Assembly (NCBI GenBank): GCA_009785525.1
Contig: WQWC01000005.1
Coordinates: 11,308-75,307, forward strand
Direction: 5' to 3'
DNA from: Oscillospiraceae bacterium
GTDB taxonomy: Bacteria; Bacillota; Clostridia; Oscillospirales; Oscillospiraceae
DNA: 64,000 nt
The notes under the pieces are model-generated. The model ran no database searches, was not told where the DNA came from, and worked only from the letters and a program-made list of their open reading frames with translations. Shown here one piece after another: positions 6,452 to 63,187 of this stretch; the first letter of the stretch is position 1; each line of letters opens with the position of its first letter. Both the position numbers and the translations under genes were made by a program.

Positions 6452-7414
6452 TTAGTCATCCAAGCCTAAAAATGCATCAATATTATTCCTTGCTCGGCTT
6501 AACACAAATTCAGCAACTGGGAAGTCAACACTTTTTCCGTTGTACTCGTCTATACGCATTTTAATGGCCTCAGTATAATGTTTCCTTATTGCTCTCTTTA
6601 ATTCATCATTGTCGTCCGCCTTGCTTAGCCTTTTAATATTATCTCCTATCTCCTTAAGGCGATTATCATAAGCGGTTTGGCCTTCGCTTGTAATGTTTGA
6701 ATAACCTCGTATCCCGCACAGTGTGGCAACCTGATCAACAAGGTTGCTGGAAATGCCACCGTTAGTGTAGTCAATTTTTGCAACTCCACAAACCTCAAAA
6801 TTACGCATTTCATCGAGATCACTTTTCGTAATTTCGTTGAAGCCACTAACACCAAACTCGTACTTTTTAAAGTGCTCACGGATTTTATCTGCGGGAATCA
6901 CTTTGAAATTGTTCTCATCATATTTAGGTGCATACGTAACCCACAGAGAGTCATTTTTACAAAAACGTATTGTTTCACGCCTATCCTTAGTCCAAACCTT
7001 TTGATAGACCTGCTCCATAACTTCAACAATCTCAGGATGTGCATATTCCAATACGTCTAATGCATCAGTCCATAACTTTTCTTCTATAAGACCATAGTCG
7101 AACTTCTCTGCTATTTTATAAATTGAATGGACAACAGCGCCGCACTCATGGGCACGAATAGTTCCTCCAAAGATAGGAAAACCACACTCTGATTTTGAAA
7201 GAACCATTCCAAAAGTGAGGTAAAGAACCTTATGCAGTTTGGCATAAGTCATATAGCAATTACTTATTTCTTTTTCCGATGCGTTTTTAGCTTTTTTCTT
7301 GTCCGCTTCGTCAATCCCTCTGTTAATGAACCATGCGGCATACCATTCTGCCCCTTGAGGCAGATCATTGTCTGTTTCAAGTAACGTTTCCTGTCCCTTT
7401 TTAGTTGTTTGCAT
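6452..7414 (-). CDS. Panacea (DUF4065, SocA/GepA-like) domain protein with an unknown ~150-aa C-terminal domain; candidate antitoxin
   Basis: YAKLHKVLYLTFG ... FPIFGGTIRAHECGAVVHSIY resembles the DUF4065 core pattern KLqKLLYyaqG ... plf ... AWkyGPVvpevY. The match was made by eye only. AT-rich gene. Confidence 0.55.
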   Translation of the reverse strand: MQTTKKGQETLLETDNDLPQGAEWYAAWFINRGIDEADKKKAKNASEKEISNCYMTYAKLHKVLYLTFGMVLSKSECGFPIFGGTIRAHECGAVVHSIYKIAEKFDYGLIEEKLWTDALDVLEYAHPEIVEVMEQVYQKVWTKDRRETIRFCKNDSLWVTYAPKYDENNFKVIPADKIREHFKKYEFGVSGFNEITKSDLDEMRNFEVCGVAKIDYTNGGISSNLVDQVATLCGIRGYSNITSEGQTAYDNRLKEIGDNIKRLSKADDNDELKRAIRKHYTEAIKMRIDEYNGKSVDFPVAEFVLSRARNNIDAFLGLDD

Positions 7415-7449
7415 TCATACAACCCTCTCTTATAGAGGGCATAGCCCCC

Positions 7450-7470
7450 ATAATTGCCAGTGGCAATTAT
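7450..7470. promoter_or_regulatory. Perfect 21-nt palindrome (candidate operator) overlapping the -10/TSS of the island promoter
   Basis: ATAATTGCCA-G-TGGCAATTAT, 10-bp perfect arms. It overlaps the TATAAT hexamer at 7466-7471. Confidence 0.6.
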
Positions 7471-7494
7471 ACCACTTTTCTGTGTTAAAGTCAA
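7466..7494 (-). promoter_or_regulatory. Sigma-70-type promoter for the Panacea-like/3-TM operon
   Basis: On the minus strand: TTGACT (7494-7489), 17-nt spacer, TGg-TATAAT (7471-7466). Near-consensus with an extended -10. Confidence 0.65.
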
Positions 7495-7581
7495 GAAAAA
7501 ATTTCAACTTTAATTTAATGTTTTTTGTTAATATGAAACATCATCCTTATCTCTATATTCCCCCAACCCACTATTTTATGT

Positions 7582-7610
7582 TTGATTATTACTTCACACT
7601 GAGGTATAAT
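7582..7610 (+). promoter_or_regulatory. Candidate promoter for murD
   Basis: TTGATT (7582-7587), 17-nt spacer, TATAAT (7605-7610). The -10 ends only 6 nt before the murD ATG. Confidence 0.45.
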
Positions 7611-7616
7611 TATGAT

Positions 7617-9038
7617 ATGCAAATTTGGACGGGAGTGTTAAATACATTGACCTTCAAACAATATATCCAATCCCTCGCTGGCTCTCGTGTTGCTGTTGTC
7701 GGGATGGGCATCAGCAACACGCCGCTTATTGAGCGACTTCTCAATGTTGGAATCAACACGATAATCTGCGACAAGCGCAACCGCGAAGAGCTGGGCGAAG
7801 CTCTGGTAAAATTTGAAAATCTCGGAGCGGAATTTAGGCTTGGAGAACAGTATCTCGCGGGCTTGGACGCGGATGTTATCTTCCGCACGCCGGGGCTTAT
7901 GCCGACTAATCCGGATATCCAAGCAGCCGTGGCTCACGGAGCTGTGCTGACCAGCGAAATGGAAGTTTTTTTCCAAATTTGTCCATGCCGAATTATCGGC
8001 ATAACCGGCAGTGACGGCAAGACGACGACGACCTCAATAATCGCGGAGCTGCTGCGGCGGGATGGTTCCCGGACAATACACGTCGGCGGGAATATCGGCA
8101 GACCGCTATTGTGCGATGCCGACGACATGTCGCCGGATGACATTGCTGTGCTGGAGTTGTCTTCGTTTCAACTGGTCTCAATGCGGCAGAGTCCGGATAT
8201 TGCTGTTGTGACGAATCTTGCGCCGAATCATCTGGATGTTCACAACGACATGGAGGAATACGCCGAGGCGAAGAGTCATATTTTTATGCACCAGAGTGCC
8301 GGAGACACGGCGATTTTCAACCTTGACAATGATTTTACAAGGCGCTATGCAGAATCCGCACCTTCCGGGAACATCCGGTATTTTAGCCGTCGGGAGCGGA
8401 TTCGTGATGGTGTGTTTCTTGAAAACGGGATAATTTGGCTGTCGCACGACGGGCAGACAGAAAAGATAATGACGGTGGACGAAATCCTGCTGCCGGGCGT
8501 GCATAATGTGGAGAATTTCATGGCGGCATTTGCCGCGGTGCAGGGATTGGTCAGTAGGGGAATAATGGCAGAGACAGCCCGCACATTCAATGGCGTGGCG
8601 CACAGGATTGAGCTTGTCCGCGAACGCAACGGCGTGCGGTTTTACAATGATTCGATCGCCACAAGCCCGACACGGACAATCGCGGGGCTGAAATCGTTCG
8701 GCGAAAAAGTGATCCTGATAGCCGGAGGCAAGGACAAAGGCGTGCCGTTCGACGAACTGGGAGCCGAAATCGTGTCCGGCGTGAAAACGCTTGTACTGAC
8801 AGGTCACGCGGCGGAGCAGATTCGTGACGCGGTTGTTAACTCACCGGGATATGCCGCAGGGAGTCCGGAAATAATTATGCGGGAAGATTTTGCTGACGCG
8901 ATAAAATCTGCGGCGGACGCGGCAGAGGAGGGCGACGTGGTGATCCTATCTCCGGCATGTTCGTCATTCGACAGATTCAAAAATTTTGAAGAGCGCGGAA
9001 ACGCTTTTCGTGAAATTGTGAAAGGGCTTTTGCTATGA
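7617..9038 (+). CDS. murD: UDP-N-acetylmuramoyl-L-alanine--D-glutamate ligase
   Basis: VAVVGMGISNTPL N-terminal Rossmann region, GITGSDGKTTT P-loop and Mur ligase C-terminal region. The track ORF (from 7368) has an implausible AT-rich N-terminal extension. First sensible start is ATG 7617 (MQIWTG...). Confidence 0.9.
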   Translation: MQIWTGVLNTLTFKQYIQSLAGSRVAVVGMGISNTPLIERLLNVGINTIICDKRNREELGEALVKFENLGAEFRLGEQYLAGLDADVIFRTPGLMPTNPDIQAAVAHGAVLTSEMEVFFQICPCRIIGITGSDGKTTTTSIIAELLRRDGSRTIHVGGNIGRPLLCDADDMSPDDIAVLELSSFQLVSMRQSPDIAVVTNLAPNHLDVHNDMEEYAEAKSHIFMHQSAGDTAIFNLDNDFTRRYAESAPSGNIRYFSRRERIRDGVFLENGIIWLSHDGQTEKIMTVDEILLPGVHNVENFMAAFAAVQGLVSRGIMAETARTFNGVAHRIELVRERNGVRFYNDSIATSPTRTIAGLKSFGEKVILIAGGKDKGVPFDELGAEIVSGVKTLVLTGHAAEQIRDAVVNSPGYAAGSPEIIMREDFADAIKSAADAAEEGDVVILSPACSSFDRFKNFEERGNAFREIVKGLLL

Positions 9039-11249: not shown

Positions 11250-12497
11250 ATGAACATCACAACTAAAATACAAACCCTAGCAACCCAAGCAATGGAAGAC
11301 ATTACCGCCCAATTCAGGAAAATAGACGAGATTGCACAAACAAACACGCAGAAAGTCCTTGCCGCATTCCAAAAACACCGAGTGTCCGACGTCTGCTTCA
11401 ACGAAACGACCGGCTACGGCTACAACGACCGAGGGCGCGAGACGTTGGATTTGCTGTTTGCCGACGTGATGGGTACCAATTCCGCGCTGGTGCGGGCCGG
11501 ATTTGTCAACGGTACTCACGCAATAACATCGGCGTTGTTCGCCGCGCTGCGTCCCGGGGATACGATGCTGTCGGCAACCGGCGCGCCGTATGATACACTA
11601 CGCGGAGTCATAGGCATAACAGGTGAACACCGGGGATCACTGCGGGAGTATGGCATCCAATACGCGCAAGTGGAGCTTGACTCCACCGGAAAGCCTGATT
11701 TACAAGCTATCGAACAGGCAATCGACTCTGACAGCAGCACATCTGCCGTATTTATCCAACGTTCGCGCGGATATTCGCAGCGCCCGTCGTTGACCGTGGC
11801 GGAAATCGGTAAAATTGCCGACCTCGCGCACAGTAGAAATCTCACGGTTATCGTGGACAACTGCTACGGTGAGTTCACCGAGACGTTGGAGCCCGGCGAT
11901 ATCGGCGCGGATCTGATCGCTGGGTCGTTGATTAAAAATCCAGGCGGCGGGATTGCTCCATCCGGTGGATACGTTGCGGGTGAGGGAGAGCTTGTGGACG
12001 CGGCAGCGGCTCGCCTGACAGTCCCCGGAATCGGCGCGGAATGCGGTGCGACGCTCGGCGTCAACAGACTGCTGTTTCAGGGATTGTTTATGGCTCCGCA
12101 TGTCACGGCACAGGCGATGAAAACTGCCGTTTTCTGCGCAAGATTGTTTGAACTCTTGGGCTATAAAACATCCCCTAGCTCATTGGATACACGGTCGGAT
12201 ATAATACAGACGGTGGAGCTTGGCTCGCCGGAGTTGCTGCGGAAATTCTGCCGCGGAATCCAGCTCGGTGCGCCGGTAGACTCGTATGTCACGCCGGAGC
12301 CCTGGGATATGCCGGGGTATGATTGCCCAGTTATTATGGCGGCGGGAGCGTTCATTCAAGGTGCGTCGATAGAACTCTCCGCCGACGCCCCGTTGCGTGA
12401 GCCGTACAGGGCATACCTCCAAGGCGGCCTGACGTTTGAATCCGGCAAGCTGGGCATAATGCTCGCGGCAAGTTCGATGGAGGATAGAGATACATAG
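11250..12497 (+). CDS. PLP-dependent Met-gamma-lyase-like protein of the YnbB / 'aluminium resistance' family
   Basis: The N-terminus (FQKHRVSDVCFNETTGYGYNDRGRETLD) and the length match this family. Call from memory of family signatures. Confidence 0.7.
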   Translation: MNITTKIQTLATQAMEDITAQFRKIDEIAQTNTQKVLAAFQKHRVSDVCFNETTGYGYNDRGRETLDLLFADVMGTNSALVRAGFVNGTHAITSALFAALRPGDTMLSATGAPYDTLRGVIGITGEHRGSLREYGIQYAQVELDSTGKPDLQAIEQAIDSDSSTSAVFIQRSRGYSQRPSLTVAEIGKIADLAHSRNLTVIVDNCYGEFTETLEPGDIGADLIAGSLIKNPGGGIAPSGGYVAGEGELVDAAAARLTVPGIGAECGATLGVNRLLFQGLFMAPHVTAQAMKTAVFCARLFELLGYKTSPSSLDTRSDIIQTVELGSPELLRKFCRGIQLGAPVDSYVTPEPWDMPGYDCPVIMAAGAFIQGASIELSADAPLREPYRAYLQGGLTFESGKLGIMLAASSMEDRDT

Positions 12498-12520
12498 TGC
12501 AACAAAGGATGGAGGCAATT

Positions 12521-13063
12521 ATGATAAATCACATCGGCAGTCAACCTATAACCACTGACAGGTTGACTTTGCGCAGATTTACGGCAGATGACAGTAAAGA
12601 CGCTTTTGAAAAATGGACAAGTTCCTATGATTCAAGGTTTTGGTATCCTCCGCATGAAAGTATTGAAGAAACAGAACAAGAGATCAACGAATATGTTAAA
12701 AATTATTACAATGCGGATTGGTACATGTGGGCCGTTGTCTTTGAAGATGAGCTTATTGGTTTGGTCTGCGGAAATGAGATAAACGAGGATATCAGGAGCA
12801 TCTGTATCGGATATTGTATAACAAAATCTTGCTGGAATAGAGGAATAGCCACTGAAGCGAGTAAAGCCCTTATAAATTATTTTTTTGACATTGGTTTTAA
12901 CAGAGTTTTTTCACATCATAACCCACTGAATCCGTCGAGCGGAAGAGTTATGCAAAAATGCGGCATGACCTTTGAAGGGAAAATCAGAGGCGGCTCAATG
13001 TTCGCGGGGGAGATTTGTGATTGTCTGCAATATTCAATTTTGAAAGAAGATATTACCGGATAA
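12521..13063 (+). CDS. GNAT family N-acetyltransferase (RimJ/RimL-like)
   Basis: LTLRRFTADD start, then the acetyl-CoA-binding core WNRGIATEA. GGAGG RBS 5 nt before ATG 12521. AT-rich. Confidence 0.8.
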   Translation: MINHIGSQPITTDRLTLRRFTADDSKDAFEKWTSSYDSRFWYPPHESIEETEQEINEYVKNYYNADWYMWAVVFEDELIGLVCGNEINEDIRSICIGYCITKSCWNRGIATEASKALINYFFDIGFNRVFSHHNPLNPSSGRVMQKCGMTFEGKIRGGSMFAGEICDCLQYSILKEDITG

Positions 13064-13203
13064 CAATTGTCCGACTCCGCGAATAAGCGTTGCATGAGGT
13101 GATACTTACGCCTAGCGGCTTTCGCAACATGTCCCGAAACCTTAGTGTTTGCCTCATTTTTGAAGTTTCTTTTCTCAGACACCTCTGATTAAAATATTTT
13201 TAC

Positions 13204-13232
13204 TTGACATCCGTTATGGAATCGTGTAATAT
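13204..13232 (+). promoter_or_regulatory. Promoter of the trp leader
   Basis: TTGACA (13204-13209), 17-nt spacer, TAATAT (13227-13232). Confidence 0.7.
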
Positions 13233-13239
13233 ACCTTAT

Positions 13240-13530
13240 AGTTTAATATCAATCTCAAACCGTTGAAGTGGAGATAACAGCAGTATATGCGCATACAGAG
13301 AGTCCGGGCAGCTGAGAGCCGGATTGAAATGCAGATTGCTAAATGGACCGCTGAGGGCATGGTCAAAAGCGTTTGATACGCTGAGTACTCCATGACGTGA
13401 CGCATACGTCAGTTGCGAGGGATATGTTTGTATCCTGCAGAGAGTACGGGTTTTTCTCGTAAATCAAGGTGGCACCGCGGATAAACTTATTCGTCCTTGA
13501 TAAAGCATAATGCTTTATCAAGGATTTTTT
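13240..13530 (+). promoter_or_regulatory. T-box riboswitch leader, probable Trp specifier (UGG)
   Basis: AGAGA stem-I motif near 13297. Candidate specifier AAA-TGG-A at 13344-13346. Conserved T-box sequence AAATCAAGGTGGCACCGCGG at 13461-13480. Terminator with a 14-bp stem at 13494-13524 plus T6. Confidence 0.85.
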
Positions 13531-13552
13531 GCATTTGAAGGGAAGATAGAAA

Positions 13553-13633
13553 ATGTATCAGATGAAAAACAATCATCCAAACGACAAGCGAGAACTTATC
13601 TTTCGATGGCGGATGTGGCATCGGTTTACCTGA
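13553..13633 (+). CDS. Speculative 26-codon mini-ORF with two Trp codons (MYQMKNNHPNDKRELIFRWRMWHRFT)
   Basis: ATG preceded by GAAGGGAAG. Two TGG codons lie 3 codons apart. Located between the T-box terminator and the permease start. May be fortuitous. Confidence 0.2.
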   Translation: MYQMKNNHPNDKRELIFRWRMWHRFT

Positions 13634-13669
13634 TACGTCAAAATAAATAAGTTTTGGAGAATATAAAGA

Positions 13670-15076
13670 ATGCTACAAAAAATAAAAGTACCCTATATTG
13701 GAAGCGGTTTTATGGCGCTGATCGCGGTCATTATTATGGCGGCGCGCCCCATCGCTGATTTGGACGACACAGGACACATTATGCTCGGAGCTATCATACT
13801 TGCTCTTTGTATTTGGATTTTTAAGCCCTTTAAGCTGACTTATGCCATAGGCGGGCTGCTTCTGGCTTTGTTTGGACTGATCGTTGAACTTCCCCCAACG
13901 GTTATCTTTTCCGGATTCACGCAAACGGCGCTCTGGACTTTAGTACCTGCGTTTTTCTTTGGGTATACACTTCAGAAAACCGGACTCGGGCGCAGGATCG
14001 CGATGGCGGTTATTAAAGTGTGCCGCCCTACGTATCTTTCGCTTATTTTCGCCTGGATTCCGATCGGCATGATCTTGTCTATCCTGACTCCGGCGACAAC
14101 TGTACGTGTGGCAATTATGCTCCCGATCGCCGTTCAGTGCGGTGAACTATTTGACCTAAAAAAAGGATCGAAGGGCAACTCGTTGATTTTATTAACTTCA
14201 TTTGCGATGGCACTCATTCCGGGGTCAGGCTGGCTGACAGGTGTGATCTGGGGTCCGTTTATCCAGGGGCAAATGGCGAACGCCGGTATAGACCTTACCT
14301 TTGGAGATTGGCTTGGAGTATTGCTTGTGCCTGTTATCATAGCGACGATTTTATTAGTCGTGGGTGGCTTGCTTCTTTTAAAGCCAGAAGAAAAACTCTC
14401 CAAAGAAGCGATTGAAGCGGTAAAAAAACAACCCATGGAAAAAATGGGGAAAAACGAAATGATATCCGCCGTGATATTAATATCGGTATTTGGATTGTCC
14501 TTAACTGCTAACATTCACGGCCTTTCCACCGCTATCATTTGCATTGCAGCTATGCTGTGTTTCTTTGTGTTCGGTGTGTTAGAAACCAAAGATTTCAATG
14601 CCGCAGCAAACTGGAATCTGGTCATTTTTATCGCTATGGCGTTCAGCCTGGGTCCTATCTTTTCTGCGACCGGGATTTCTGACTGGCTGTCGGGGATTGT
14701 TGTGCCTGCGCTTGCGCCGATTGCTGGCAATCCTTGGTTGTTTGTGTTTTCTGCCACGGCTTTTATGTTTCTTTGGAGTTTGGTCGATGTCGCCATGTTT
14801 CTTCCGACAATCTCAATCATGGCGCCGATACTCCCCAAAATACAAGAGGCGTATCAGATCAGCCCCTTCGTTTGGCTCGCTGTCTTTATACTTGCAGGCA
14901 ATGCTTTCTTTTTGGCATACCAGAATATGTGGGCTGTTATGAGCCGTTCTATCGCGGAAGACAGGGCGTGGACGAATAAGCACCAAAGTAGATACGGCCT
15001 GATTTATTTTGCGGCGTGCCTGATTGCTCTGGTCGCGGCAATCCCCATGTGGATCAATGCCGGGCTATTCGGATAA
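13670..15076 (+). CDS. Ion-transporter-superfamily (DASS/ArsB-like) anion permease, first gene of the T-box-controlled trp operon
   Basis: 468 aa and highly hydrophobic, with an estimated 12 or more TM segments. Central amphipathic linker KPEEKLSKEAIEAVKKQPMEKMGKNE. The two-halves architecture is typical of DASS/citrate-transporter-like permeases. Confidence 0.7.
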   Translation: MLQKIKVPYIGSGFMALIAVIIMAARPIADLDDTGHIMLGAIILALCIWIFKPFKLTYAIGGLLLALFGLIVELPPTVIFSGFTQTALWTLVPAFFFGYTLQKTGLGRRIAMAVIKVCRPTYLSLIFAWIPIGMILSILTPATTVRVAIMLPIAVQCGELFDLKKGSKGNSLILLTSFAMALIPGSGWLTGVIWGPFIQGQMANAGIDLTFGDWLGVLLVPVIIATILLVVGGLLLLKPEEKLSKEAIEAVKKQPMEKMGKNEMISAVILISVFGLSLTANIHGLSTAIICIAAMLCFFVFGVLETKDFNAAANWNLVIFIAMAFSLGPIFSATGISDWLSGIVVPALAPIAGNPWLFVFSATAFMFLWSLVDVAMFLPTISIMAPILPKIQEAYQISPFVWLAVFILAGNAFFLAYQNMWAVMSRSIAEDRAWTNKHQSRYGLIYFAACLIALVAAIPMWINAGLFG

Positions 15077-15125
15077 GAACGTAGATTATATAGATTATAT
15101 TTAAATGTTTAGGAGGGAATCAAAC

Positions 15126-16136
15126 ATGATCAAAGAAGCCATCGTATCCTTGGCGAAGAAACAGGATTTGACCTATGAAACCGCGGAAGCGGTCATGCAC
15201 GAAATTATGACCGGTGAAGCGACCCCCGTTCAAATGAGCGCGTATCTGACTGCGCTGAGTCTAAAAGGCGAAACAACCGATGAAATTACCGCGTCCGCTT
15301 TCGGGATGCGTTCCCATTGTGTGCGTCTTTTGCATGATGCGGATGCCCTCGAAATTGTCGGCACCGGCGGAGACCACGCCAATACCTTCAATATATCCAC
15401 TACGGCGTCCATTATCACGGCTGCCGCGGGTATCCCGGTGGCAAAGCACGGCAATCGAAGCGCATCAAGCAAATGCGGTGCCGCTGATGTGTTGGAAGCC
15501 TTGGGCGTAAATATCAATCTCCCGCCGGAGAAAAGTGCTGAACTGCTGGAGCGTATCGGAATCTGCTTTATGTTCGCACAAAACTATCACATCGCCATGA
15601 AGTTTGTGGCACCGATTCGCCGGGAATTGGGAATCCGAACGGTGTTCAATATCATAGGACCGCTCACAAATCCCGCCGGCGCGAAAATGGAGCTGATGGG
15701 GGTTTATGATCGAGAACTGGTGGAGCCCTTGGCGCAGGTGCTTTGCAACTTGGGCGTAAAAAATGCCATGGTGGTACACGGCGAGGATGGGCTGGATGAA
15801 ATATCACTAAGCGCACCCACATTTGTTTGTGAAGTAAAAGACGGCTGGGTGCGTTCATACACGATTACGCCGGAGCAATTTGGGTTTGAGCGCTGTCATT
15901 CAGATGCGTTGCAGGGCGGAACACCTGCTGAGAACGCTGAAATCCTCACAGCGATATTAAAAGGCAAACAAGGTGCGAAACGAAATGCTGCGGTTCTCAA
16001 CGCGGCGGCAGCCATGTTCATCACAGGAAGATATGAATCCATCGAAATGGCTGTAAAGGTCGCGGAAGAGGTCATCGACAGCGGAAAAGCATATGGAAAG
16101 CTGGAAGAGTTTATCCGCTTTTCAAATGAAAGGTAG
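15126..16136 (+). CDS. trpD: Anthranilate phosphoribosyltransferase
   Basis: EIVGTGGDHANTFNISTTA, KHGNRSASSKCGAADVLEALG and NPAGA motifs. GGAGGG RBS before ATG 15126. Confidence 0.92.
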   Translation: MIKEAIVSLAKKQDLTYETAEAVMHEIMTGEATPVQMSAYLTALSLKGETTDEITASAFGMRSHCVRLLHDADALEIVGTGGDHANTFNISTTASIITAAAGIPVAKHGNRSASSKCGAADVLEALGVNINLPPEKSAELLERIGICFMFAQNYHIAMKFVAPIRRELGIRTVFNIIGPLTNPAGAKMELMGVYDRELVEPLAQVLCNLGVKNAMVVHGEDGLDEISLSAPTFVCEVKDGWVRSYTITPEQFGFERCHSDALQGGTPAENAEILTAILKGKQGAKRNAAVLNAAAAMFITGRYESIEMAVKVAEEVIDSGKAYGKLEEFIRFSNER

Positions 16137-16146
16137 GTAAAATACT

Positions 16147-16935
16147 ATGAGCATACTGCAAGAAATCGCGGCGCATACAAAAAGGCGCGTGGAGGATCAA
16201 AAAACAGTGTTGCCGCTTCCGAAAGTGAAAGAAATGGTTTGTTCACTTGATTGCACCCATGATTTTGCCTTTGAGAAAGCCTTACAGTCAAAGGATATAT
16301 CCTTTATTTGCGAAATCAAGCGAGCTTCCCCGTCAAAGGGCGTGATCGCTTTGGACTTTCGCTATCTGGATATTGCCAAGGACTACGAACAGGCGGGTGC
16401 TGCGGCCATTTCTGTTTTGACCGAGCCGCATTACTTCAAAGGTGACGACCGCTATCTGCGCGAAATCGCCGACACAGTGACGATCCCGCTACTGCGTAAG
16501 GATTTTACTGTTGATGCATATATGATCTACGAAGCGAAGCTGCTTGGAGCGAGTGCAGTGTTATTAATTTGCGCGATACTGGACAAGGAAACGCTGGCTG
16601 AATATCTAGCTATCGCCCATAGCTTAGGTCTTTCTGCGCTTGTGGAAACACATACGGAAGCGGAAGTGGAAATGGCGCTGGCCGCAGGCGCGCGGATGAT
16701 TGGGGTTAACAACAGAAACCTCAAAACATTTGAAGTCGATATCACTTTAAGCAGTCGACTCAGAAAAATGGTGCCGCAGGACATCCTTTTCGTGTCCGAA
16801 AGCGGCGTCCAAACAGCGGAGGATGTAGATGCGCTTCGCAAGCATGGCGTGGATGCCATACTTGTGGGCGAAAGGCTGATGCGTGCGCCTAATAAAAAAG
16901 CGGCGCTAACCGAACTGAGAGGTGGTGTGCTATGA
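16147..16935 (+). CDS. trpC: Indole-3-glycerol phosphate synthase
   Basis: FICEIKRASPSKG, LRKDFTVD, IGVNNRNL and ESGV motifs. Confidence 0.92.
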   Translation: MSILQEIAAHTKRRVEDQKTVLPLPKVKEMVCSLDCTHDFAFEKALQSKDISFICEIKRASPSKGVIALDFRYLDIAKDYEQAGAAAISVLTEPHYFKGDDRYLREIADTVTIPLLRKDFTVDAYMIYEAKLLGASAVLLICAILDKETLAEYLAIAHSLGLSALVETHTEAEVEMALAAGARMIGVNNRNLKTFEVDITLSSRLRKMVPQDILFVSESGVQTAEDVDALRKHGVDAILVGERLMRAPNKKAALTELRGGVL

Positions 16936-17540
16936 CGAAGGTTAAGATATGCGGGTTAAGCCGGGCGGAGGATATAGTAGCTGTCAATCGTGTGTTGCCG
17001 GATTATATCGGTTTTGTGTTTGCCCCGAGTCGGCGCAGAGTAGATATGAAAGCGGCGGCCATATTAAAAGAAACCCTCGATCCGCAAATCGAGGCGGTGG
17101 GAGTCTTTGTGAATGAAGATATGGGCGTCGTTGCGGAGGCCTACCAAAGCGAAATCATCGAAATGGTGCAGTTGCACGGTGACGAGGACGATGATTATAT
17201 TAGGCAGCTAAAAGAGCGTTGCGGTTGCCGGGTGATTAAAGCAGTTGGTGTCGGCGACGCGCTGCCGCCTTTGCCGCTGGAAGCGGATTATCTCTTGTTC
17301 GACACGCTTTCGATAGAGCGGGGCGGTGCTGGCAGAGTCTTCGATTGGAATGTCTTGCACGATTACTGCGGTCTCCCATATTTTCTGGCAGGCGGGCTGA
17401 CAACGCATAATGTAGCCGACTCAATCCGCCAACTTAATCCGTTTTGCATGGACGTAAGCAGCGGTGTAGAAACGGACGGTGGAAAAGACGCGGAAAAGAT
17501 CGAAAAATTTATAGAATCGCTTAGGAGGAGGCAGAAATGA
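16932..17540 (+). CDS. trpF: Phosphoribosylanthranilate isomerase
   Basis: KICGL start, DYIGFVF, QLHGDE and the C-terminal DVSSGVE motif. 4-nt overlaps with trpC and trpB. Confidence 0.9.
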
Positions 17541-18721
17541 ATAAAGGAAGATTCGGCGAATTCGGCGGACAATACATCCCCGAAACCTTGATGGACGCAC
17601 TATACGAATTAGAGGAAGCGTATAATCACTATAAGGACGATCCGACATTTCAAACCGAGTTGAACGGACTTTTGACTGATTACGCCGGGCGGCCTTCGCG
17701 TCTCTATTACGCTAAGAATCTGACAGAACAAATCGGTGGTGCTAAAATCTACCTAAAACGGGAAGATCTGAACCATACCGGCTCGCACAAGATAAACAAT
17801 GTACTTGGACAAACCTTGCTTGCAAAATATATGGGAAAAACTCGCATTATCGCAGAAACGGGTGCCGGGCAGCATGGTGTTGCGGCGGCGACCGCTGCTG
17901 CTTTGTTGGGGCTTGAGTGCGAGGTGTTCATGGGGAAAGAAGACACCGAGCGGCAGGCACTCAATGTCTATCGGATGCGTTTATTAGGGGCGAAAGTGCA
18001 CCCCGTCACCTCCGGCACCATGACGCTCAAAGATGCAGTGAACGAAACCATGCGGGAATGGACGCGGCGGGTGTCAGATACACATTATGTACTTGGATCA
18101 GTTATGGGGCCGCATCCCTTTCCCATGATGGTCAGAGATTTTCAAAAAGTGATCGGAGAGGAAATCCGTGTGCAAATAAACCGGATTGAAAACTGTCTGC
18201 CGGATGCCGTGGTTGCCTGTGTGGGCGGGGGATCAAATGCGATTGGCGCATTTTATGATTTTATCAGTGACGACAACGTGCGTTTGATTGGATGTGAAGC
18301 GGCGGGCAAAGGGCTTGATACCGATCAGCACGCCGCCACAATCACATGTGGTTCCATTGGTGTGTTTCATGGGATGAAATCCATTTTTTGTCAGGATGAG
18401 TTCGGGCAAATTGCACCGGTTCATTCTATATCCGCAGGACTTGACTATCCAGGCATCGGACCGGAACATGCGTGGCTATATCAATCTGACCGTGCAGAAT
18501 ATGTGCCTGTTACTGACGATGAAGCCGTGGACGCTTTTGAGCACTTATCACGCATGGAAGGGATCATACCGGCAATCGAATCCGCTCATGCCGTGGCACA
18601 TACGTTAAAGCTCGCAAAAGAAATGGGGGAAGGGAAAATCATCATCGTTTGCCTTTCTGGACGCGGCGATAAAGATGTAGCGGCTATTGCCAGATATAAG
18701 GGGGAAAATATCGATGAATAG
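17537..18721 (+). CDS. trpB: Tryptophan synthase beta chain
   Basis: [32 protein letters not shown] (PLP lysine) and GGGSNAIG motifs. Confidence 0.96.
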
Positions 18722-19490
18722 AATACATGATGCATTTCAGAATCAAAAGGCGTTCATCGCTTATCTGATGGCTGGTGACCCGAACCTTGCGATCTCGGCA
18801 GAATATATCCTGACCGCACAGGAAGCCGGTGCCGATATGATCGAGATTGGTATTCCATTCTCTGACCCGATTGCCGAGGGTGAAGTGATACAAGCGGCCA
18901 GCGCACGCGCCCAAGCTGCCGGAACAAGGCTTGACGGTGTGTTTGAGATGGTGGCATCCATCAAAGATCAGATGCGGATTCCGATGGTATTTATGACCTA
19001 CTTAAACCCTGTATTTGTATATGGGTATGAGCGCTTTTTCGCCAAATGCACAGAGATTGGGATATGCGGTGTGATTATCCCTGATTTACCGTTTGAAGAA
19101 CAGAGTGAGGCAAAATCGATAGCAGCAAAGCATAATATCGAGATCATCACACTGGTGGCTCCCACTTCGGAAAAACGGATTGCCACAATCGCTGAGAGTG
19201 CAGAAGGCTTTATCTATCTGGTATCCTCTATGGGAGTTACAGGCGTACGAAGTGAAATCACAACCGACTTGTCGGCGATTGTATCTGCAATAAAAAAACA
19301 TACCAATATTCCGGTTGCGATCGGTTTCGGTATTTCGACGCCGGAACAGGTTGGATACTATTCAGCCATCGCCGACGGCGTAATTGTCGGCAGTGCCATT
19401 GTGCGTATCATCGGACAGCACGGCGAAGACGCAAAACCGGCAATGTGTGAATATATACAAAGAATGAAGCAAGGGCTTGCAGGCGTTTAA
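18714..19490 (+). CDS. trpA: Tryptophan synthase alpha chain
   Basis: [25 protein letters not shown] and GFGIS motifs. ATG 18714 overlaps the trpB stop by 8 nt. Confidence 0.92.
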
Positions 19491-19556: not shown

Positions 19557-20558
19557 TTATCCGTCTTCCTTCTTATACCCAGACAGGGGAGTACGCTGTG
19601 CCGCGTCGCGCAGGTTTTCGTTTTCGACATGGGTATAAATCTGCGTTGTGTTCAAGTGTTCATGTCCCAGAAGTTCTTGTAGCGTTCTCACATCCACGCC
19701 GCTGTTGAGCATTAGAGTTGCCGCAGTGTGGCGGAGTTTGTGGGATGAGTATTTAGCGCTGTCCAATCCAGCTGCCGATAGGTGTTTTTTCACCAGACTA
19801 TGTATCGTGGAAGTGCTTATCCGTGTTCGCCTGGCAGAGAGGAAAAGCGCATTTCTGTCAACCGCTGCAACGCTTTTACGCGCCGCGAGATAGTCGTTGA
19901 TGGCATCGGCACACGCGTCGTTTATGAACACGATGCGCTCTTTATTGCCTTTACCCAAGACCCTAATTGAATCCGCGCGTAAATCTGTCAGATTCAGTCC
20001 GGCAAGCTCTGAAATCCGCAGTCCGCAATTTAGGAAGATGGTCAGTATACAGAAATCGCGCTCACGATTAGCGCCTGATACGTTGTCTAGCAGCTTTACG
20101 CTTTCGTCAAGGCTCAAGAAGCGGGGGAGTGACTTTTTTATTTTCGGCGAATCAAGATCCGCCACCGGATTTTCGTCCAACTGTTTTGTTTTCAGCGTGA
20201 GATACTTGTAATACGAACGTATTACCGCAATTTTACGCGCGCGGGTAGTCGCACTGAGGCCATAGTCTGTGTACCGGCTGTTGTGCTGCTTAGGCCTGTC
20301 GCGGGAGAGGAACGCAAGGTACTCATAGACGTCCGAAATCGTGACAGACTTGACAAAATCGAGATCTATATCCATAATAGAAATTTCCTCAAATTGAATG
20401 TCATCCGGACGCAACTTTTTATGAATCTTCAAAAACCGGAAAAATGTACGAAGATCCAGAAAATACTCATCAATTGTCCGTTTTGAGTGACCTTTGATTG
20501 TCTCATGATAAAAAAGAAAATCGCGAATGATGGCGGGGGACTCAGTTCTGTAATCCAT
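19557..20558 (-). CDS. Tyrosine site-specific recombinase (XerC/XerD / phage-integrase family)
   Basis: C-terminal catalytic signature HKLRHTAATLM ... LLGHEHLNTTQIYTHV. N-terminal SAM-like core-binding domain. ATG 20558 has an AGGATGG RBS. Confidence 0.85.
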   Translation of the reverse strand: MDYRTESPAIIRDFLFYHETIKGHSKRTIDEYFLDLRTFFRFLKIHKKLRPDDIQFEEISIMDIDLDFVKSVTISDVYEYLAFLSRDRPKQHNSRYTDYGLSATTRARKIAVIRSYYKYLTLKTKQLDENPVADLDSPKIKKSLPRFLSLDESVKLLDNVSGANRERDFCILTIFLNCGLRISELAGLNLTDLRADSIRVLGKGNKERIVFINDACADAINDYLAARKSVAAVDRNALFLSARRTRISTSTIHSLVKKHLSAAGLDSAKYSSHKLRHTAATLMLNSGVDVRTLQELLGHEHLNTTQIYTHVENENLRDAAQRTPLSGYKKEDG

Positions 20559-20624
20559 AATTAACCATCCTGTCGTTAGTTTACGCAGATTATTATAGCA
20601 CATCCATCGGAGGACGTCCATAAA

Positions 20625-62884: not shown

Positions 62885-63187
62885 TATTTTAATATTTCTA
62901 ATTGCATTGAAGAGAAATAGTACCTGCTTATTCAAAGTGCAGAGAGGGCCGGGTTGGTGTAACGGCTTGTTTGGATGAACGGAGAACTCGTCTCGGAGCT
63001 GTGCGCGGAACGTGAGATATTTTTACTTTCACCATTATGCCGCACCGGAAGCCCGCCGTTATACGGGACGCGATATTGGGTTACAGTATCGTTAGTGAGT
63101 GTACGCCGCCGTTTAACCGGCCGCGTGAATTCAGGTGGTACCGCGAGGCTTTAAGCTCCTCGTCCTGATTATAGGACGAGGCTTTTT
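62885..63187 (+). promoter_or_regulatory. T-box riboswitch leader, probable Leu specifier (CUC)
   Basis: AGAGA at 62941. Candidate specifier GAA-CTC-G at 62987-62989. T-box sequence AATTCAGGTGGTACCGCGAGG at 63128-63148. Terminator CCTCGTCCT-gattat-AGGACGAGG plus T5 at 63158-63187. Confidence 0.85.

Follow-up and report, generated by a model that had tools for sequence, protein, structure and literature searches.

Tryptophan operons that encode TrpD, TrpC, TrpF, TrpB and TrpA without TrpEG have been described as variant A3, predicted in 38 human-gut genomes and taken to salvage anthranilate through a transporter that was left unassigned (Ashniev et al. 2022, PMC9026213), and according to a paper of 2020 anthranilate has no known specific transporter (PMC7778614). 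Here we analyze an operon of this kind from an Oscillospiraceae bacterium (contig WQWC01000005.1; “the window” is the whole stretch of 64,000 nucleotides that was analyzed), in which a tryptophan-specific T-box leader is followed by a 468-residue permease of the DASS fold and then by trpDCFBA. The enzyme complement is that of variant A3, with TrpD, C, F, B and A present and TrpEG absent in a 96%-complete genome; the anthranilate synthase genes that define a canonical trpEGDCFBA operon are missing, and the proposed dependence on external anthranilate is the same. What differs from variant A3 is that TrpD shares its transcript, its regulation and its inheritance with a specific permease, and that the relatives of the operon come mostly from termite guts. 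We consider it probable, from the sequence comparisons below, that the permease takes up anthranilate under tryptophan control and so feeds a salvage pathway. Full-text literature searches turned up no transporter for anthranilate or aminobenzoate in the family to which it belongs.

Other described systems share individual features with the locus. T-box-regulated tryptophan transporters are known, for example the NSS-family TnaT homologues (Wels et al. 2008, PMC2494555). They likewise have a T-box with a tryptophan specifier in front of a membrane transporter, but they belong to another protein family and import the end product, whereas here the carrier lies within a biosynthetic operon that has no first enzyme. 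The solved DASS/SLC13 carriers (LaINDY, AtDiT1, AtDiT2.1, VcINDY, NaDC1, and NaS1) have the same fold as the permease at an identity of just 13–20%, and they carry di-/tricarboxylates, sulfate or phosphate, whereas the substrate proposed here is an aromatic monocarboxylate. In aphid co-symbionts the tryptophan pathway is reportedly split, Buchnera making anthranilate and Serratia symbiotica converting it: there, too, one partner without anthranilate synthase is fed anthranilate from outside, but those symbionts are intracellular, with reduced genomes and no identified carrier, whereas the gut bacteria considered here are free-living and their uptake gene is regulated. Benzoate-type anions are taken up by the MFS aromatic-acid:H+ symporters PcaK and BenK, and p-aminobenzoyl-glutamate by the AbgT family, which belongs to the same broad ion-transporter superfamily as the permease; the MFS carriers are unrelated to the permease and AbgT is remotely related, the AbgT-type YdaH being a weak Foldseek match (E 0.016, TM 0.43). 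We know of no carrier of the PcaK, BenK or AbgT type that carries anthranilate or sits in a trp operon. The fold, the regulatory logic and the truncated pathway are all known, then; likely to be new are the substrate class, with anthranilate as the proposed substrate, and the mobile design of the operon.

The first-pass annotation, made from the letters of the window, had described a T-box with a UGG specifier, a conserved T-box sequence and a terminator ahead of permease-trpDCFBA, and all of these are present (Table 1). The leader aligns to all 219 positions of the RF00230 model (1–219), with a score that does not reach the gathering score of 93 bits; a scan of the whole window at that threshold missed it, and a scan by local E-value recovered it. 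The specifier stands in the context AAA-UGG-A, with the usual purine after UGG, and the UGGC at 13470–13473, within the T-box sequence, complements the 3′ end GCCA of tRNA-Trp. The genome encodes one tRNA-Trp (anticodon CCA, 3′ end GCCA, discriminator base G), complementary to both the specifier UGG and the bulge UGGC. The terminator hairpin overlaps the T-box match on its 3′ side, which is the layout needed for antitermination control. The leader thus has a stem I that contains a specifier loop, the T-box sequence, and an antiterminator and a terminator that exclude each other, and it is a T-box RNA with tryptophan specificity. The promoter ahead of it is the sole promoter-like site within 13050–13700. 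A second T-box leader lies elsewhere in the window (62898–63170; RF00230, 104.7 bits); its bulge is UGGU, which fits a tRNA with discriminator base A.

Table 1. Features of the T-box–permease–trpDCFBA locus and its flanks, in window coordinates
Feature	Position	Strand	Evidence or remark
Sigma-70-type promoter, TTGACA-17 nt-TAATAT	13204–13232	+	10/12 consensus matches
T-box leader, tRNA-Trp-specific	13254–13501	+	RF00230 full-length, 86.1 bits, local E 3.4e-19
Specifier codon UGG (Trp) in specifier loop	13344–13346	+	Aligned to the Rfam specifier position
T-box sequence AAUCAAGGUGGCACCGCG	13461–13479	+	Read directly from the sequence
Intrinsic terminator, 15-pair stem (13493–13525) and U-tract	13493–13531	+	Competes with the antiterminator
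Small open reading frame, 26 codons, two Trp codons, motif IFRWR	13553–13633	+	Between terminator and permease
DASS-fold permease, 468 residues, proposed anthranilate importer	13670–15076	+	PF00939, 105 bits
trpD, anthranilate phosphoribosyltransferase (consumes anthranilate)	15105–16136	+	TIGR01245, 425.8 bits
trpC, indole-3-glycerol-phosphate synthase	16147–16935	+	NF001377, 350.7 bits
trpF, phosphoribosylanthranilate isomerase	16932–17540	+	PF00697, 146.7 bits
trpB, tryptophan synthase beta	17537–18721	+	TIGR00263, 642.4 bits
trpA, tryptophan synthase alpha	18714–19490	+	TIGR00262, 283.5 bits
GNAT acetyltransferase	12497–13063		Upstream of the operon
Tyrosine recombinase	19557–20621	-	Downstream of the operon

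The genes from the permease to trpA overlap or are separated by gaps of at most 28 nucleotides. For trpA the start is likely the ATG at 18714 rather than the TTG at 18687, which gives an overlap of eight nucleotides with trpB; the same overlap occurs in a 90%-identical operon elsewhere.

With the acetyltransferase on one side and the recombinase on the other, no trpE or trpG flanks the operon, as had been noted at the outset, and none is found in the rest of the window or elsewhere in the assembly (2.16 Mb, 70 contigs, 96% complete). A profile search of this assembly for the chorismate-binding family PF00425 found no member, the identical search being positive in 14/14 control genomes, which means that the assembly holds no TrpE, PabB or isochorismate synthase (MenF); the top match to the TrpG/PabA model TIGR00566 reaches 35 bits against a cut-off of 121. 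The genome does encode chorismate synthase, so that the block lies specifically at the step from chorismate to anthranilate, and external anthranilate becomes the only visible entry point to the pathway. Kynureninase was considered as an internal source of anthranilate, and none was found in the host genome. The host is an exception in its family: adjacent trpE and trpD are found in seven of ten other genomes and neither gene in the remaining three, and across the host order a PF00425 protein accompanies a TrpD above cut-off in 52 of 61 other genomes. On another contig of the host (C8 1–2744; locus L101) folE, folP and folB are present, and no PabB-type enzyme is encoded in the genome; the host probably depends on external 4-aminobenzoate or folate as well.

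The link between permease orthologues and trpD, on which the salvage reading depended, recurs in 23 genomes and about 20 metagenome contigs, with several gene orders and in three phyla. A scan for the permease over one genome per prokaryotic species gave 80 loci, and in the 23 genomes in which the gene lies inside a trp cluster, each such permease is at least 50% identical to the query. Four layouts occur: permease-trpDCFBA, trpBA-permease-trpDCF, trpDC-permease-trpF, and permease-trpDCF with trpBA a few kb off. The genomes are assigned to Bacillota, Spirochaetota and Actinomycetota (bin labels: Oscillospiraceae, Defluviitaleaceae, Lachnospiraceae, Treponema or Spirochaetes, and Coriobacteriia), and nearly all are bins from gut metagenomes of higher termites, with sample codes that correspond to the species feeding on litter, humus and soil in Hervé et al. 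2020 (PMC7024585). A scan of metagenomes added 36 contigs, about 20 of them with the permease followed by trpD; most of the others end close to the permease, and some duplicate bin contigs. One permease copy, 90% identical to that of the window, heads an identical operon between other flanks (BioY and allantoin-related genes), so the unit has been inserted in different places. Within the host order the permease (E ≤ 1e-20) occurs in just 2 of 200 other genomes, a rarity that fits horizontal acquisition.

Loss of the first enzyme goes with the permease. A PF00425 protein is absent from 21 of the 23 genomes with a trp-linked permease and present in two, and chorismate synthase, used to control for incomplete bins, is found in 18 of the 23. 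The anticorrelation between permease and TrpE is strong, not absolute. Four PF00425 proteins in permease-bearing genomes were considered as isochorismate synthases and score best as the TrpE type.

The most direct pointer to the substrate is the co-inheritance of the permease with TrpD, the enzyme that consumes anthranilate. Across phyla, the TrpD of permease-linked operons is 76–89% identical to that of the window, against 55–70% for the trpE-linked TrpD of the host's own family. No such difference is seen in the rest of the operon, where the corresponding ranges are about 52–72% against 58–59% for TrpC, 42–71% against 48–51% for TrpF, and 46–82% against 52–58% for TrpA: these enzymes are no closer in permease-linked operons than in ordinary relatives. 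In the TrpD tree a clade with 99% support comprises 42 rows, 37 of them permease-adjacent, and includes the TrpD of the window, whereas the TrpDs of the host's family lie outside; its other members are two copies directly behind a T-box, those of the genomes G024 and G025, and that of the permease-free genome G166. The permease tree, a quick IQ-TREE result, has a clade of 32 rows, likewise with 99% support, which holds the trp-linked copies (24 rows); a second, small group of Treponema permeases lies near it. Permease and trpD thus appear to travel together across phyla.

Regulation is shared as well. Leaders homologous to the T-box of the window precede the operon in 19 loci, including those of bins labeled Treponema and Coriobacteriia, and AAAUGG stands at the specifier position in 18 of 20 aligned leaders. 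Two genomes (G028 and G029) have the permease at one locus and trpDCF at another, each with a homologous tryptophan T-box of its own; in a third (G024) the permease is unlinked, trpD lies elsewhere and TrpE is absent. Control by the tryptophan T-box is therefore kept even where permease and trpD are not linked. The motif IFRWR of the small open reading frame ahead of the permease recurs in the long spacers of two other loci (L014, with two copies, and L017) and not in ten loci with spacers of 14–125 or 208 nucleotides; it could belong to a repeated DNA or RNA element or to a leader peptide. One Coriobacteriia bin carries identical T-box-permease-trpDCFBA copies on two contigs (L026 and L027), either by duplication or through redundancy in assembly or binning.

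From these observations a mechanism can be proposed. When uncharged tRNA-Trp accumulates, it would pair with the UGG of the specifier and the UGGC of the bulge, and this pairing would stabilize the antiterminator and allow read-through into the permease and trpDCFBA. The permease, as a divergent anion carrier of the DASS fold, would then import external anthranilate (2-aminobenzoate); TrpD, encoded directly downstream, would trap it with phosphoribosyl pyrophosphate, and TrpF, TrpC, TrpA and TrpB would finish the pathway. Anthranilate salvage had been the first reading of the operon, and every computational check proposed for it came out in its support; which substrate the permease carries, in which direction and with which coupling ion is what we infer from this gene context and from the fold.

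The permease itself belongs, as a divergent member, to the anion carriers of the DASS fold, in line with its initial description as an anion-type permease. It matches PF00939 (Na_sulph_symp) with 105.2 bits over residues 15–413 (gathering 27) and PF03600 (CitMHS) more weakly, with 65 bits, and does not reach the cut-off of the DASS model TIGR00785 (122.6 versus 198.6 bits). NCBIfam has no specific model for it, and its relatives bear public names such as “SLC13 family permease” or “anion transporter” and nothing beyond these. A profile of the permease family matches AtDiT1 (E 5e-19), AtDiT2.1, LaINDY and VcINDY; the top Foldseek matches are all DASS proteins (LaINDY, AtDiT1, AtDiT2.1, NaS1, NaDC1, and VcINDY; TM 0.48–0.62, E 1e-10 to 1e-7), with LaINDY and AtDiT1 best at a TM of about 0.6. 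In DASS symporters, Ser-Asn-Thr motifs at the hairpin tips bind Na+ and carboxylate. The tip of the first hairpin, which is Ser-Asn-Thr in VcINDY and in DASS symporters, reads TPATTVR in the permease and aligns with IPSNSAR of LaINDY and PSVSAR of AtDiT1, both of them Na+-independent exchangers; the second tip is not confidently alignable. This replacement makes Na+ symport of the VcINDY type improbable, and the coupling is probably of another kind. Conserved throughout the permease family are TP(S/A)xTVR, KTGLGxRIA and YQNMWA, and Arg146 is invariant; some residues close to the predicted binding hairpins are clade-specific. The host also has a paralogue, 32% identical to the permease (contig C9 23501–24844; L100 6391–7866), which lies beside a gene of the isocitrate/isopropylmalate-dehydrogenase family and is probably an ordinary carboxylate carrier.

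More distant relatives of the permease are found in other surroundings. A branch that is about 40% identical, with 16–18 loci (within L045–L079) in Pelotomaculum, other Desulfotomaculaceae, Syntrophobacteraceae and others, adjoins genes for a fused CoA-transferase, a LysR regulator and a PaaK-type ligase (for example L047 14509–18264 and L045 8095–9678), as well as a three-subunit molybdenum enzyme resembling 4-hydroxybenzoyl-CoA reductase; the alpha subunit of this enzyme scores 905.6 bits against TIGR03194 (4-hydroxybenzoyl-CoA reductase alpha), for which the cut-off is 994.6. The arrangement of these genes differs between Bacillota and deltaproteobacterial bins. One locus of the family has a gene for a large subunit like that of pyrogallol hydroxytransferase upstream, and two have Amidohydro_2 genes, which we take to encode members of a family of aromatic-acid decarboxylases. 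Finally, a homologue with 50% identity lies within a folate operon, folP-folBK-permease-folA-folC (L098 5492–10360, with the homologue at 7138–8550, on a contig shared with L035), in a genome whose one chorismate-binding enzyme is the TrpE adjoining trpD. FolP uses 4-aminobenzoate, the para isomer of anthranilate, and the homologue is a candidate importer of 4-aminobenzoate. Its nearest relative is just 60% identical, and searches with the folate-linked protein through termite and other metagenome contigs and a set of 5.8 billion proteins found no second folate-linked case, so that this link is that of one contig. Taken together, the neighbors of the benzoate-catabolic type and those of folate synthesis point to substituted benzoates as the substrates of the family.

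On this basis a wider proposal can be put forward, toward which we lean no more than away from it: that these proteins form a DASS-fold subfamily for substituted benzoates (anthranilate, probably 4-aminobenzoate, and acids of the 4-hydroxybenzoate type), that the trp-linked member would be the first dedicated anthranilate importer, and that it moves in a cassette with a specialized TrpD, and often with the tryptophan T-box, among the Bacillota, Spirochaetota and Actinomycetota of termite guts.

Several observations weigh against anthranilate uptake as the role of the permease, or against its generality. Characterized DASS proteins carry di-/tricarboxylates, sulfate or phosphate, and transport of an aromatic monocarboxylate would have no precedent in this fold; the AlphaFold model of the permease is moderately confident, with a mean pLDDT of 68. 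A pair of TrpE-like protein and amidotransferase, detached from the trp genes, occurs in two of the genomes whose permease is trp-linked (G002 and G019), and a further genome (G025) has the permease together with an operon of DAHP synthase, trpE and trpD, the TrpD of which falls in the permease-associated clade. Nine other genomes of the host order are TrpD-positive and free of PF00425 and have no close homologue of the permease, six of them forming a separate operon type, trpBA-trpDCF; the permease is therefore not the sole route to a life without trpE. Two permeases of the trp clade (L019 and L023) are followed by Amidohydro_2 genes and not by trpD, so that specificity may be broader. The comparison genomes, moreover, are mostly metagenome bins of unknown completeness in which single contigs are possibly mis-binned; the safer cross-phylum cases are the Treponema bins with contigs of 149–164 kb.

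One alternative is a broad carrier of aromatic acids or aminobenzoates (4-aminobenzoate, hydroxybenzoates, and anthranilate), for which anthranilate supply would be one role among several, or not the main one. The host, with folE, folP and folB but without PabB, makes uptake of 4-aminobenzoate by the same carrier conceivable, and both the homologue inside the folate operon and the Amidohydro_2 neighbors of the two clade members would fit. We nevertheless regard this as unlikely: expression gated by the charging of tRNA-Trp alone argues for anthranilate supply as the selected role, members of the trp clade as a rule adjoin trpD, and the folate-linked homologue is a singleton outside that clade.

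That the permease imports tryptophan itself, as a new family of T-box-controlled tryptophan transporters that is co-transcribed with the biosynthetic genes incidentally, had been raised as the alternative in the first-pass annotation, and we hold it to be quite unlikely. A tryptophan T-box would be expected here equally, since T-box-regulated transporters of amino acids are common (PMC2494555). Left unexplained, however, are the loss of TrpE with TrpD, TrpC and TrpF retained, the co-inheritance of the permease with TrpD and not with the other genes of the operon, and the benzoate-type catabolic and folate neighbors of the related branches, and the DASS fold carries anions, with no solved relative found that carries a zwitterionic amino acid. 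It is very improbable that an anthranilate synthase lies unassembled (70 contigs at 96% completeness leave about 4% unseen), or that an unrelated enzyme forms anthranilate, and that the permease is an ordinary di-/tricarboxylate carrier with no relation to the pathway, as its nearest solved relatives, being dicarboxylate carriers, would allow, because the family's trpE sits directly upstream of trpD, where on this intact contig the permease fills the position, because the absence of a TrpE type is repeated in 21 of 23 independent genomes with chorismate synthase found in 18, and because a dicarboxylate carrier would have no reason to stay in the tryptophan T-box regulon when unlinked from trpD.

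If the permease does take up anthranilate, it would extend the substrate range of DASS/SLC13 carriers to aromatic monocarboxylates, an extension that gains relevance since derivatives of anthranilate are known to inhibit SLC13 carriers. Metabolic models built from genomes have so far had to guess at salvage where the pathway lacks TrpEG (PMC9026213); with a marker gene for the uptake of anthranilate, such predictions would become testable and the calling of auxotrophies in models of the gut microbiome would improve. For termite hindguts, the findings point to cross-feeding of a tryptophan intermediate and to the transfer of a riboswitch-like regulator across phyla together with its genes; anthranilate would then be a shared, public metabolite of these guts, in which many members of the community would have abandoned the initial step of tryptophan synthesis. 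Some regions of the termite gut are strongly alkaline; anthranilic acid would there be fully ionized and would not diffuse through membranes, which suggests that a carrier may be needed.

The operons of the host order that lack both trpE and the permease deserve a separate description. Those of the second type (L090–L095, in the genomes G072, G098, G179, G211, G088, and G050) have the order trpBA-trpD-trpC-trpF and a divergent TrpD, 43–47% identical to that of the window, with no transporter adjoining. Another transporter beside trpD was looked for in the trpE-less operons of the order, and the neighbors proved unrelated: a DsbH-like thioredoxin, PhoH, SpoIIR, a YtxH-like protein and one chemoreceptor. 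The genome G166, also of the host order and without TrpE and the permease, has a trpB-A-D-C-F operon (L096 3957–10226) in which TrpD is 86% identical to that of the window. A methyl-accepting chemotaxis protein with an sCache_2 sensor domain heads this operon, its gene ending 12 nucleotides before trpB.

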